DNA from: Escherichia coli
Lineage (GTDB): Bacteria > Pseudomonadota > Gammaproteobacteria > Enterobacterales > Enterobacteriaceae
DNA: 64,000 bases
Reading direction: 5' to 3' (one strand)
Assembly: GCF_001677475.2 (NCBI RefSeq)
Contig: NZ_CP015229.1
The position numbers and the translations under genes are program-made. Every line of letters starts with the position of its first letter. Position 1 is the first letter of the stretch. The notes below the pieces were generated by a model. It was not told the DNA's origin and searched no databases. It saw nothing but the letters and a program-made list of their open reading frames with translations. Positions 49,820 to 58,414 of the stretch are shown here, piece after piece.

Positions 49820-52800
49820 ATGTTGTACGATAAATCCCTTGAGAGGGATAACTGTGGTTTCGGCCTGATCGCCCACATAGAAGGCGAACCTAGCCACAAG
49901 GTAGTGCGTACTGCAATACACGCACTGGCCCGCATGCAGCACCGTGGCGCGATTCTCGCCGATGGTAAAACCGGTGACGGTTGCGGCTTGCTGTTACAAA
50001 AACCGGATCGCTTTTTTCGCATCGTTGCGCAGGAGCGCGGCTGGCGTTTAGCGAAAAACTACGCCGTCGGGATGCTATTCCTGAATAAAGATCCTGAACT
50101 CGCCGCTGCCGCACGCCGCATCGTTGAAGAAGAGCTGCAACGCGAAACCTTGTCGATTGTGGGCTGGCGTGATGTCCCCACTAACGAAGGCGTGTTGGGT
50201 GAAATCGCCCTCTCCTCTCTGCCACGCATTGAGCAAATTTTTGTGAACGCCCCGGCAGGCTGGCGTCCGCGCGATATGGAGCGCCGTCTGTTTATCGCCC
50301 GCCGCCGCATTGAAAAGCGTCTCGAAGCCGACAAAGACTTCTACGTCTGTAGCCTGTCGAATCTGGTGAACATCTATAAAGGTCTGTGTATGCCGGCGGA
50401 TCTGCCGCGCTTTTATCTGGATCTTGCGGACCTGCGTCTGGAATCGGCCATTTGCTTGTTCCACCAGCGCTTCTCCACGAACACCGTACCGCGCTGGCCG
50501 CTGGCGCAGCCGTTCCGCTATCTGGCGCATAACGGTGAAATCAACACCATCACCGGTAACCGCCAATGGGCGCGTGCGCGTACCTATAAATTCCAGACGC
50601 CGCTTATCCCTGATCTGCACGACGCCGCACCGTTCGTCAACGAAACCGGCTCTGACTCCAGTTCGATGGATAACATGCTGGAACTGCTGCTGGCAGGCGG
50701 GATGGATATCATCCGCGCCATGCGCCTATTAGTACCACCCGCCTGGCAGAACAACCCGGATATGGACCCGGAACTGCGTGCCTTCTTTGACTTTAACTCC
50801 ATGCATATGGAGCCGTGGGATGGCCCGGCGGGCATCGTGATGTCCGATGGTCGTTTTGCCGCCTGTAACCTCGACCGTAACGGTCTGCGTCCGGCGCGCT
50901 ACGTCATCACCAAAGATAAGCTCATCACCTGCGCCTCTGAAGTCGGTATCTGGGATTATCAGCCTGACGAAGTGGTCGAAAAAGGCCGCGTCGGGCCAGG
51001 CGAACTGATGGTTATCGACACCCGCAGTGGGCGTATTCTGCACTCGGCAGAAACCGATGACGATCTGAAAAGCCGCCACCCTTATAAAGAGTGGATGGAG
51101 AAAAACGTCCGCCGCCTGGTACCGTTTGAAGATCTGCCCGATGAAGAAGTGGGTAGCCGCGAACTGGACGACGACACGCTTGCCAGCTACCAGAAACAGT
51201 TTAACTACAGCGCGGAAGAGCTGGACTCCGTAATTCGCGTACTGGGCGAAAACGGTCAGGAAGCGGTCGGATCGATGGGCGATGATACCCCATTCGCCGT
51301 GCTCTCCAGTCAGCCGCGCATTATTTACGACTACTTCCGCCAGCAGTTTGCTCAGGTGACTAACCCGCCAATCGACCCGCTGCGTGAAGCGCATGTTATG
51401 TCGCTCGCCACCAGCATTGGTCGTGAAATGAACGTCTTCTGTGAAGCAGAGGGCCAGGCGCACCGTTTAAGCTTTAAATCGCCGATTCTGCTCTACTCCG
51501 ATTTCAAACAGCTCACGACGATGAAAGAGGAGCACTACCGCGCAGATACGCTGGATATCACCTTTGACGTCACTAAAACCACGCTCGAAGCGACAGTCAA
51601 AGAGCTGTGCGACAAAGCCGAAAAAATGGTACGTAGCGGCACCGTGTTGCTGGTGCTCTCCGACCGGAATATCGCTAAAGATCGCCTGCCGGTTCCGGCT
51701 CCGATGGCGGTTGGCGCGATCCAGACCCGTCTGGTCGATCAAAGCCTGCGCTGCGATGCCAACATCATCGTCGAAACCGCCAGCGCCCGCGATCCGCACC
51801 ATTTCGCCGTGTTGCTGGGCTTCGGTGCGACGGCTATTTATCCGTACCTTGCCTATGAAACGCTGGGCCGTCTGGTAGACACCCACGCGATTGCCAAAGA
51901 TTATCGTACCGTGATGTTGAACTACCGTAACGGCATCAACAAAGGCTTGTACAAAATCATGTCCAAAATGGGCATCTCCACCATCGCCTCTTACCGCTGC
52001 TCGAAACTGTTTGAAGCGGTCGGTCTGCACGATGATGTAGTGGGCCTGTGCTTCCAGGGAGCGGTCAGTCGCATTGGTGGGGCGAGCTTTGAAGACTTCC
52101 AGCAGGATCTGCTGAATCTCTCGAAACGTGCCTGGCTGGCGCGTAAGCCCATCAGCCAGGGCGGCCTGCTGAAATATGTGCACGGCGGCGAATACCACGC
52201 CTACAACCCGGACGTGGTGCGCACGCTGCAACAGGCGGTACAGAGCGGCGAGTATAGCGACTATCAGGAATACGCGAAGCTGGTTAATGAGCGTCCGGCA
52301 ACCACGCTACGCGATCTGCTGGCAATTACGCCGGGTGAAAACGCGGTCAACATTGCTGATGTTGAACCGGCAAGCGAACTGTTTAAACGCTTCGATACCG
52401 CTGCGATGTCTATCGGCGCGTTAAGCCCGGAAGCCCACGAGGCGCTGGCTGAAGCGATGAACAGCATCGGCGGTAACTCGAACTCCGGTGAAGGCGGTGA
52501 AGACCCGGCGCGCTACGGCACTAACAAAGTGTCGCGCATCAAGCAGGTGGCGTCAGGTCGCTTCGGTGTTACTCCGGCGTACCTGGTCAATGCTGACGTC
52601 ATTCAGATTAAAGTCGCCCAGGGCGCGAAGCCGGGCGAAGGCGGTCAGTTGCCAGGTGATAAAGTCACGCCTTACATCGCCAAACTGCGCTATTCGGTGC
52701 CGGGCGTGACGCTGATCTCCCCGCCGCCGCACCATGATATCTACTCTATCGAGGACTTAGCGCAGCTTATTTTCGACCTCAAGCAGGTTAACCCGAAAGC

Positions 52801-54280: not shown

Positions 54281-55711
<1,431 letters not shown>

Positions 55712-55894
55712 GCTCTGTCCCAGCGCCGCCTCCTCAGAAAAGAGTCGGCGCTGAAATTCTCCTTTCTTTCTGGAAAGCGCCTCGCATAATCTGAAGAAAA
55801 CCAATGTAATACGCTCATCTGGATTGTTACCGGTAGATGCCCGGCGTATAGCTGATTCCATTATTCAACGCAGCGCCATATAAAGGGACAGATA

Positions 55895-57022
55895 ATGGAA
55901 TCGCTCTCAGAGAGAACCTCAACAGGCTACCAGCAAATCCACGACGGTATTATTCATCTGGTCGATAGCGCACGGACGGAAACGGTACGTAGCGTTAACG
56001 CGCTGATGACCGCGACATACTGGGAAATTGGCCGACGAATTGTCGAATTTGAACAAGGTGGCGAGGCCAGGGCTGCGTATGGTGCGCAGCTAATCAAGCG
56101 ACTATCAAAGGATTTAAGTCTAAGGTATAAGCGTGGGTTCTCTGCAAAAAACTTACGCCAAATGAGGCTTTTTTACCTCTTTTTTCAACATGTTGAAATT
56201 CGCCAGACAGTGTCTGGCGAATTAACACCATTGGGAATTCCGCAGACACCATCTGCAGAATTCCCATCGGCAAAGATTTGGCAGACGCTGTCTGCCAAAT
56301 CTTTCCCCCTGCCCTGGTCCACCTACGTCCGTTTACTTTCCGTTAAAAACGCTGACGCCCGCAGCTTTTATGAAAAAGAGACGCTCCGCTGTGGCTAGTC
56401 TGTTCGCCAGCTAGAACGGCAAATTGCGACCCAATTTTATGAGCGAACACTACTGTCACATGACAAATCAGCCATGCTGCAACAACATGCTCCTGCCGAG
56501 ACGCATATTCTTCCGCAACAGGCGATACGCGATCCTTTTGTGCTTGAATTTCTGGAGTTGAAAGATGAATACTCAGAATCCGATTTTGAGGAGGCGCTGA
56601 TCAACCACCTGATGGATTTCATGCTGGAACTTGGGGATGATTTTGCCTTTGTTGGTCGACAGCGAAGGTTACGCATTGATGACAACTGGTTTCGTGTCGA
56701 TCTGCTGTTTTTCCACCGCCGTTTACGCTGCCTGCTAATCGTCGATCTAAAAGTGGGCAAATTCAGCTATAGCGATGCCGGACAGATGAATATGTATCTC
56801 AACTACGCCAAAGAGCACTGGACGCTACCGGATGAAAATCCGCCCATCGGTCTGGTTCTCTGTGCAGAGAAAGGAGTCGGAGAAGCGCATTATGCACTGG
56901 CTGGTTTGCCTAACACCGTTCTGGCGAGTGAATATAAGATGCAACTACCTGATGAAAAACGACTCGCGGATGAACTCGTTCGAACACAGGCGGTGTTAGA
57001 GGAAGGCTATAGACGCCGTTAA
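55895..57022 (+). pseudogene. yhcG: yhcG (DUF1016, PD-(D/E)xK nuclease-fold family) interrupted by an in-frame TAG at 56396..56398
   Basis: Track fragments 55895..56398 and 56474..57022 share one frame; read-through gives a 375-codon ORF. C-terminal part carries a D...DxK-like motif (VDLLFF...IVDLKVGK). Confidence 0.8.
56201..56304. repeat. Three adjacent palindromes with a CAGAC..GTCTG core inside yhcG (a fourth lies at 57038..57062 after the stop)
   Basis: cgCCAGACAgTGTCTGGcg (56201..56219); gggaattccGCAGACaccatCTGCAGaattccc (56233..56265, one mismatch); aaagatttgGCAGACgctGTCTGCcaaatcttt (56272..56304, perfect 15-bp arms). Confidence 0.7.
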
Positions 57023-57081
57023 TTTCAGCGGTTTCGAATTCTCCAGACACTGTCTGGAGAATCTTTAAAACGAACTAAATT

Positions 57082-58414
<1,333 letters not shown>

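Follow-up and report, generated by a model that had tools for sequence, protein, structure and literature searches.

The subject of this study is a cluster of palindromes, P1 to P4, that lies within and just downstream of the yhcG gene in a 64,000-nucleotide stretch of an Escherichia coli genome (contig NZ_CP015229.1; hereafter the window). These palindromes are the E. coli copies of a conserved, self-complementary, DNA-level element of the DUF1016/YhcG nuclease gene family, present at a single fixed site of the CDS in almost all bacterial, archaeal and phage family members examined. Across the family the element is defined in position, phase and length and shows nucleotide-level constraint: the codons, and hence the peptide (I-X-Q-T-x-S-...), are determined by the palindrome and not the other way round. 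The sequence of the arms drifts, with both arms changing together, and lineages have repeatedly duplicated the unit in frame. In Escherichia an extra, non-coding copy is found after the stop codon, surviving even where yhcG has been lost, and the E. coli element is a hotspot for unit gain and loss and for rearrangement breakpoints. Taken as a whole, we consider it probable that the palindromes represent a conserved DNA fold-back element that acts in cis and is coupled to the nuclease encoded by its own gene.

The yhcG palindromes

A first-pass annotation of the window had reported palindromes in and just past yhcG. All four are real, with some limits corrected, and are arranged as follows:

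56197 to 56313, plus strand: array of three in-frame tandem units of 39 bp (13 codons), spacing 39 and 39, with one palindrome each
56197 to 56223, no strand assigned: P1, AATTCGCCAGACA g TGTCTGGCGAATT, with perfect 13-nt arms around one central base
56234 to 56264, no strand assigned: P2, imperfect, GGAATTC c GCAGA caccA TCTGC a GAATTCC, 7+5 bp with one C.A mismatch and a 5-nt loop
56269 to 56307, no strand assigned: P3, with perfect 15-nt arms at 56272-56304 and 18-nt arms at 94% over 56269-56307
57038 to 57062, no strand assigned: P4, ATTCTCCAGACA c TGTCTGGAGAAT, with perfect 12-nt arms, non-coding, between the convergent yhcG and nanQ/yhcH genes

The first palindrome had been placed at 56201-56219 and proved to be wider, while the perfect 15-nt arms reported at 56272-56304 were confirmed. 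The coordinates of P4 also stood, with its start now placed 15 nt (not 16 nt) 3' of the yhcG TAA stop (57020-57022). A CAGAC/GTCTG core had been ascribed to all four palindromes; that of P2 is CAGAC...ATCTG as opposed to a perfect GTCTG. The P2-equivalents in other alleles are perfect, with different arms. The repeats had further been described as inverted. They are inverted, but P1-P3 are at the same time direct, in-frame 39-bp tandem units, which had been missed; each unit encodes I-X-Q-T-x-S-[GA]-[EK]-x plus a spacer.

Folding as single-stranded DNA (ssDNA) gave hairpins of -13.1 kcal/mol (z = -8.7) for P1, -9.2 kcal/mol (z = -7.8) for P2 and -15.8 kcal/mol for P3, with z ranging from -5.5 to -8.7 per element and reaching -12.5 for the array. 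The corresponding predicted RNA hairpins have energies of -15 to -25 kcal/mol each and -64.8 kcal/mol for the array. Within the window, CAGAC-N1-3-GTCTG was observed 4 times against 0.15 expected, with 3 of the 4 at yhcG. The sole other match (51722-51733, CAGACCCGTCTG) is located inside gltB, is without extended arms and was taken as chance.

A family of dispersed E. coli motifs could be rejected, as the motif occurs at the yhcG locus only: when the P1 unit was searched with blastn in 5,426 genomes, the median number of matching places was 2, corresponding to the two strands of one site, and no genome had more than 5, every one of them at yhcG. The genome-wide search proposed in the first-pass annotation thus gave no enrichment in E. 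coli; the enrichment is across the gene family. We agree that the palindromes are not repetitive extragenic palindromic (REP), enterobacterial repetitive intergenic consensus (ERIC) or BoxC repeats. A consensus terminator scan identified none at P1-P4, P4 being followed by CTTTAAAA and not forming a G+C-rich stem with a T/U tract, and a terminator role for P4 was rejected, as were attenuators at P1-P3. A ribosomal frameshift site at the T-run before P1 was likewise rejected, its spacing and heptamer being wrong and the site not being conserved in the family. Look-alikes of MetJ, LexA, C-box and GntR-type operators were set aside, since we take their spacing or orientation to be wrong.

A family-wide element in DUF1016 genes

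At E ≤ 0.001, the number of representative sequences recovered for the DUF1016 family exceeded 25,000. Orthologs and distant homologs vary in length at exactly the site of the palindromes, where the number of I-x-Q-[TP]-x-[SA]-x-[EKQ]-x units ranges from 1 to 6. The DNA was taken for 80 DUF1016 genes (42-64% identity) from Beta- and Gammaproteobacteria, Acidobacteria, Cyanobacteria, Bacteroidota, Verrucomicrobia, Planctomycetes, Methanoperedens and DPANN archaea. Across 78 of these genes, 91 strong palindromes were found in the homologous region (3,701 codons) compared with 8 in the remaining coding sequence (CDS; 28,994 codons). The arms differ widely and are each self-complementary, with examples including CAGAC/GTCTG, GAGAC/GTCTC, CCGAATC/GATTCGG, TCTCGAC/GTCGAGA, ACGCGAC/GTCGCGT, CCAGTCA/TGACTGG and GCTACCC/GGGTAGC. 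In genomes of high G+C content, the rare codons TCT, ACA, ATT and GAA are used wherever pairing needs them. Distant members without QTxS in the peptide still have the palindrome, e.g. AATTGGTGAGAA gcc TTCTCACCAATT. One distant gene (locus L095, 880-1240) contains a six-unit array with a 60-bp period and two palindromes per unit, AATTCAGCAACC agt GGTTGCTGAAT and TCTAAAGACA gta TGTCTTTA, the second being centred in codon phase 2.

Viral contigs provided an independent sample, in which the palindrome was present in 37 of 41 distinct genes, with further new arm sequences. These virus-borne genes have 42 palindromes per 3,522 nt at the site and 21 per 40,521 nt elsewhere, a 23-fold excess in density. 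No extragenic copies were found within 1.5 kb of the gene in other lineages.

Three side observations concern these homologs. The distant genes at L094 and L095 are flanked by SIR2-like, Macro-domain, RNA-ligase and Fic genes, a context that is defence-island-like. Many metagenomic DUF1016 proteins, as well as sub-models of PDC-S02 (the PADLOC candidate system to which YhcG corresponds), start or end at residue ~100-112, which corresponds to the palindrome; these ends may stem from inverted repeats that break assemblies or gene calls, or from genuine frameshifts. At loci L064 and L065, in-frame stops are found beside the units.

Anatomy and covariation of the element

The element is ~25 bp long and consists of an 11-bp stem closing a 3-nt loop (AATT-N8-NNN-N8-AATT), with an inner arm that is often CAGAC/GTCTG. 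The centre of symmetry falls on codon position 1 (phase 0) in 148 of 158 units. Pairing between the arms of these units is 74-95% at positions k = 2-12, compared with 47% at k = 1 and 46% at k = 13, and is at background (~25%) beyond. The outer A-T-T/A-A-T and inner C-A-G-A-C positions are conserved, and the middle positions are free but co-varying. Analysis of 111 distinct units showed that 10 of the 11 pairs have changed on both sides, with 234 compensated cells versus 58 in shuffles, and that a shift of register drops pairing to 20-45%. Read in frame, the Ile codon (ATT) mirrors (G/A/C)AA-T, and the counterpart of the free codon X is formed by the final two bases of the Gly/Ala codon plus the first base of the following codon, which leads to the residue couplings R..G-E, V..A-Q, L..A-E, W..A-K and P..A-E.

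The pairing is of a strict Watson-Crick type. G.U and U.G pairs account for 12 of 1,221 cells, versus 80 non-pairs. At k = 7 the pairs are CG (54), GC (39), UA (10) and UG (1), although U.G is one synonymous transition away from C.G. A wider set of mismatches contains 54 A.C and 29 G.T, i.e. no excess of sense-strand wobble. A search of Rfam 15 found no family match, the best scores of 12-21 bits (thresholds 34-100) being generic hairpin matches. Strict Watson-Crick symmetry is to be expected of a duplex-to-cruciform equilibrium, or of a mechanism that copies, and not of a wobble-tolerant mRNA hairpin; the near-absence of G.U therefore favours a DNA-level element over RNA.

Palindromy is not a consequence of the peptide

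We resampled codons from the usage of each gene while keeping the protein fixed. Over 200 trials, this codon null gave a mean of 0.95 palindromes (maximum 5) in the homologous region, where 86 were observed. A second variable linker of the same genes contains 1 palindrome in 5,976 nt, compared with 115 in 11,700 nt at the element site. A tolerant loop alone does not, therefore, accumulate palindromes. Between Salmonella and C. freundii, the unit is identical in 9 of 9 codons and differs at 0 of 27 nt, in contrast to 51% identical codons and 23% differing nucleotides elsewhere (P = 0.0023). Together with the persistence of palindromy through changes of peptide and arm, the codon null and these frozen synonymous sites bear out the nucleic-acid-level signal proposed in the first-pass annotation. 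Loss of the palindrome with retention of the peptide would speak against such a signal; the outcome was the opposite, with orthologs keeping the palindromes and not the peptide.

Variation and breakage within E. coli

The number of yhcG units varies from 1 to 3 between E. coli strains. The O157 Sakai gene lacks exactly 78 bp, corresponding to two units, and the deletion is flanked by the short direct repeats CCATTG and CCCTTG that border P2-P3. The length of the yhcG amplicon is one of six LSPA-6 lineage markers of O157:H7 (PMC3514354, PMC8733641), and 'allele 3' of this marker (392 bp; strain 02E060, PMC8733641) lacks 2 bp (AT) where the 78-bp deletion is joined and is frameshifted as a result. 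With head-to-tail units in frame and polymorphism of copy number, the array is a coding tandem repeat of the variable-number (VNTR) kind.

Compensated double and triple changes, which keep the arms complementary, occur between E. coli alleles. The P1 arm triplet CGC/GCG is replaced by GTG/CAC in other alleles, with the palindrome remaining perfect; the arms of unit 2 are CGCC/GGCG in one allele and CTCC/GGAG in another; and P4 alleles with TCC..GGA or TGC..GCA are compensated between strains. In one allele, of 382 residues, all three units are perfect and self-symmetric and no two share an arm triplet. Among three-unit alleles, polymorphism was found at 2 of 80 stem, 2 of 11 loop and ~10 of 190 other positions, numbers that are too small for significance.

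A census of alleles was made on an even sample of 60 out of 4,430 E. coli genomes. Three units are present in ~60% of these. In a further ~17%, of the type seen in strain Ceylon31, homology to yhcG ends exactly at the end of the P3 right arm (~56300), where a foreign segment of ~470 bp takes over, running past P4 and rejoining just downstream of it; the remainder have one-unit or divergent alleles. The replacement in Ceylon31 (L005, 4600-5060) contains an open reading frame (ORF) of 101 residues annotated 'transposase' as well as a hairpin of its own (ggcacagagc...gctctgtgcc). In strain P276M, IS1 is inserted inside P3, where it adjoins the left arm at 56279/80. Two other disrupted loci were noted: IS3 is inserted at window position ~56129 in strain GENOMIC23-001, and an ATPase/DUF5682/VWA island occupies the locus in strain 23CRST013, where an 86-bp yhcG relic remains. 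The first-pass annotation had also listed a recombination hotspot among its options, which is supported as a consequence of the element but not as its function.

A hypervariable patch of ~160 bp, comprising ~55 bp upstream of P1 and the units (56128-56200 were compared), sets the 370-residue alleles apart, with near-identical flanks. Its sequence resembles that of Pseudocitrobacter-type alleles (P0034/P0035). The pattern is suggestive of a short tract of recombination or conversion, with the palindromes at its centre.

Strains without yhcG (ATCC 25922, p11A) have a gltD-nanQ gap of 67 bp that holds a solitary perfect palindrome, aAATTCGCCAGACAGTGTCTGGCGAATTt (in ATCC 25922, L096 2501-2528). 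Its arms are those of P1 (CGCC-type) and its position is that of P4. The palindrome was matched in 5,121 genomes and yhcG in 4,467, a difference of ~650. As to origin, the solitary copy may be a remnant, may have pre-existed or may have arisen by conversion. A simple recombination between P1 and P4 does not fit this allele, from which the 5' 300 bp of yhcG are absent as well.

The locus and the encoded protein

Further features of the locus in the window are:

55895 to 57022, plus strand: yhcG, encoding a DUF1016_N + YhcG_C PD-(D/E)XK nuclease, PADLOC candidate PDC-S02; a pseudogene here (from ORFs, Pfam and PADLOC)
56183 to 56198, no strand assigned: small 8+8 palindrome, TTTCAACA directly followed by TGTTGAAA, which adjoins P1, extends the local fold and is missing from the KOr019-type allele

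The gene order is gltD (54293-55711, plus strand), yhcG (55895-57022, plus strand) and the convergent yhcH/nanQ (57082-57546, minus strand). The gltF-yhcADEF block, which lies between gltD and yhcG in K-12, is not present in the window strain, and homology of the gltD-yhcG spacer (55712-55894) to the K-12-type yhcG upstream region starts at ~55775. Codon 56396-56398 of yhcG is an in-frame TAG in this strain and TGG in others; yhcG is thus a recent pseudogene here. The palindromes are intact in this strain despite this. A further 7+7 palindrome, TTCTCTG tg CAGAGAA at 56856-56871 in the region coding for the nuclease domain, occurs in all E. coli alleles examined and is probably due to chance or codon usage. 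We also considered a decayed palindrome relic upstream of yhcG (~55764-55811; AATTCTCC...TGGAAAG). Had it held, yhcG would look like a cassette between two sites; with a match to the unit of 18/27 and no self-complementarity, it was judged to be chance. In the K-12 yhcF-yhcG spacer, the stationary-phase non-coding RNA G0-10703 has been reported divergent from, and antisense to, the 5' end of yhcG (PMC7967276); it does not overlap the palindromes.

Intact yhcG alleles score 130-150 bits with DUF1016_N (PF17761) and 190-192 bits with YhcG_C (PF06250), the gathering cut-offs being ~33, and YhcG matches PDC-S02, a single-gene defence candidate of PADLOC, with E = 3e-131. An AlphaFold model based on a 51-sequence alignment has a mean predicted local distance difference test (pLDDT) score of 80.5, with residues 102-124 below 50 and no secondary structure over ~97-125. 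The predicted product of the units is thus a disordered loop, which connects two N-terminal domain helices and immediately precedes the conserved 'LSWSHY' helix. The best structural matches of the C-terminal domain are NucS/EndoMS, followed by Can2/Card1, Bax1 and NucC. A previous profile study placed the YhcG nuclease domain nearest to archaeal Holliday-junction resolvases, YraN and DUF91 (PMC1189080), and DUF1016 genes are enriched beside type I restriction-modification (RM) and inversion-targeted genes (PMC9881135). No solved homolog structure or named NCBIfam family giving a function was found. The literature on yhcG, DUF1016 and PDC-S02 consists of fold prediction, use as a typing marker, neighbourhood statistics and one negative phage test, and the palindromes are mentioned in none of these papers.

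Proposed role of the element and alternatives

The property under selection would be fold-back of the DNA, either as a hairpin on single strands or as a cruciform in supercoiled duplex. We infer this from the strict Watson-Crick symmetry at positions that are free in sequence, of which fold-back would be the sole explanation. The symmetry is probably kept by purifying selection in combination with template-switch correction within the palindrome, whereby a change in one arm is copied to the other. Most likely, the element serves as a cis-acting structural site coupled to the NucS/Holliday-junction-resolvase-like PD-(D/E)XK product of its own gene, and it could be a self-contained control or recognition site that travels with a mobile, defence-island gene. 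Replication slippage, giving changes in copy number and the 78-bp O157 typing indel, would be a by-product of the element, as would the rearrangement breakpoints.

A number of points weigh against this proposal. What suggests that YhcG may bind or cut the palindrome is similarity of fold only, and an 11-bp stem is at the lower limit for cruciform extrusion in vivo. Template switching alone could give compensated changes without selection for structure, and the ATT and CAGAC segments of the arms may owe their conservation to constraints at the protein level or on the specific sequence, which are inseparable here. The Salmonella/Citrobacter unit keeps a G.G mismatch, showing that perfection is not obligatory. 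The units used for covariation were pre-selected for palindromy and are phylogenetically related, making the percentage paired partly circular; the enrichment tests, the codon null and the diversity of pair types are free of that circularity. Finally, one PDC-S02 representative tested against T4, T5 and T7 gave no protection.

A more specific version of the proposal, in which the hairpin or cruciform is the cognate DNA structure bound or cut by the DUF1016 nuclease itself, is possible but unlikely in our estimation. The perfect Watson-Crick arms, the size of the stem and loop, the ssDNA folding energies and the NucS/Holliday-junction-resolvase-like fold of the encoded nuclease would be in keeping with a cruciform that is the substrate of a junction nuclease. 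If true, the palindrome would be a portable, sequence-independent switch for self-control or self-destruction, acting for example by supercoiling- or infection-triggered cleavage or by roadblock autoregulation, and both the copy after the stop and the solitary copy in yhcG-less E. coli would be targets in trans.

The palindrome could instead be a self-perpetuating, functionless coding sequence that goes back to an ancestral quasi-palindrome, with template switching homogenising the arms in a tolerant loop and hairpin-promoted slippage making the tandem copies. We regard this as doubtful. The encoded peptide is disordered and highly variable, and within-species compensated transversions without wobble intermediates are a signature of template switching, which has been described to create and maintain hairpins (PMC8794818). 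Strict Watson-Crick symmetry also fits a copying mechanism, and the P4 alleles are those of the internal unit types, suggesting conversion. Set against this, the other variable linker of the same genes is nearly palindrome-free, and bacterial, archaeal and phage genes have the position, phase, stem length and outer AATT in common, although palindromes are deletion-prone and their loss is expected under neutrality. The arms stop sharply at 12 bp and do not grow. Moreover, the Salmonella/Citrobacter unit is frozen at synonymous sites yet its G.G is uncorrected, which points to selection at the sequence level and not to automatic homogenisation.

A sense-strand mRNA hairpin or array within the CDS, throttling elongation or marking the transcript (e.g. 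for RNase III) and thereby keeping a potentially toxic nuclease low, appears a poor candidate, and the RNA structure put forward in the first-pass annotation is disfavoured accordingly. In its favour, RNA folding predicts highly stable hairpins, transcription of the gene always includes the element, the covariation is like that in structured RNAs and copy number could tune expression. It is disfavoured by the near-absence of G.U even where one synonymous change would create it, by the excess of A.C over G.T mismatches, by pairing that often reaches to within one base of the symmetry centre with a loop of only 3 nt, by the perfect copy outside the gene, present also in strains without yhcG, and by the lack of an Rfam match.

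Two other explanations are effectively excluded. The first, one form of the protein-binding site also suggested in the first-pass annotation, would be a duplex operator whose bases are recognised one by one by a symmetric dimer. The dimer could be a transcription factor, or it could be YhcG itself working as an enzyme specific for sites of the GAC-N3-GTC type. GACN3GTC is a class of type II restriction sites that the core of the element resembles, the two-fold symmetry is strictly Watson-Crick, and the outer AATT and inner GAC..GTC are conserved. However, units of one gene and P4 differ at k = 7-9 (CGC, CTG, CTC, TGG, GTG) while each remains self-symmetric. A protein that ignores these bases would keep no symmetry there, whereas a protein reading them would be unable to bind every unit. 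The cores of other family members are wholly different (e.g. GGTGAGAA, GCGAACGC, GCTACCC), and this explanation is very improbable. The second, an ordinary protein tandem repeat that is palindromic through its amino acids and codon usage, is barely credible: the 13-codon units are in frame and QTxS recurs in many homologs, but the codon null falls far short of the observed count, rare codons are chosen for pairing in high-G+C genomes, the palindrome persists with unrelated peptides and P4 is non-coding.

DUF1016/YhcG is a very large uncharacterised nuclease family that is common in defence islands, type I RM operons, integrative elements and phages. A covarying nucleic-acid structure inside a CDS that overrides the identity of the peptide is rare, and offers a first concrete, testable handle on the family. 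The element is also a clean natural system in which selection can be set against template switching in the 'compensatory evolution' of hairpins. It explains the yhcG length polymorphism used in O157:H7 lineage typing and the breakage and rearrangement of the locus in E. coli, and may explain the frequent split of metagenomic gene calls at residue ~105.

Comparison with known systems

No prior description of the YhcG palindrome element was found in the searchable literature, and we compared it with several known systems. The coding palindromes of Nematomorpha mitochondria (PMC6649704) are alike in that perfect inverted repeats lie in the CDS, both arms are translated and the symmetry shapes the protein. 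They are, however, up to 284 bp long, occur in large numbers across many genes of a single genome and are specific to a lineage, in contrast to a single 25-bp element at a fixed codon position of one gene family, covarying across bacteria, archaea and phages. Template switching at quasipalindromes (Ripley/Lovett; PMC8794818, PMC8604942) similarly produces one-step homogenisation of arms and compensated changes of several nucleotides. It is a mutational mechanism, and leaves the position, phase, length, frozen synonymous sites and clean second linker unexplained.

The cruciform-forming inverted repeats of ColE1 and pBR322 are standard substrates of junction-resolving enzymes, with stems of ~11-13 bp and loops of 3-5 nt, and need perfect Watson-Crick arms because the hairpins compete with the perfect duplex. 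The YhcG element is in a similar size class and the YhcG nuclease is NucS/Hjc-related, but the element is located in a coding region and its extrusion is putative.

Rickettsia palindromic elements are mobile repeats of 100-150 bp inserted in frame into many unrelated genes of one genus. Both these and the YhcG element are translated as a tolerated peptide; the latter is short, not dispersed and inherited with one gene family. Its single fixed position in that family is unlike the mobility of a Rickettsia-type element or of an in-frame miniature inverted-repeat transposable element. REP repeats and bacterial interspersed mosaic elements (BIMEs) are also short, hairpin-capable palindromes, and P4 is extragenic between convergent genes. 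Their GTAG/CGTC head is not in the YhcG element, however, and where REP/BIME sequences are extragenic with hundreds of dispersed copies, only P4 is extragenic here, P1-P3 being intragenic, with a median of one site per genome, at yhcG only.

The attC sites of integrons are recognised by their folded structure and lie just downstream of the cassette ORF, as P4 does for yhcG. They differ in their length of 57-141 bp, RYYYAAC/GTTRRRY core sites and extrahelical bases, whereas P1-P4 are perfect or near-perfect palindromes of 25-39 bp with outer AATT and no core sites, the main copies being inside the ORF. Nor is the array a clustered regularly interspaced short palindromic repeat (CRISPR) array, as its units are translated in frame, its 'spacers' are ~12 nt and its repeats differ from each other. 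The YhcG element is set apart from its nearest analogues as a short element confined to one gene family and one codon position, and found across domains of life.

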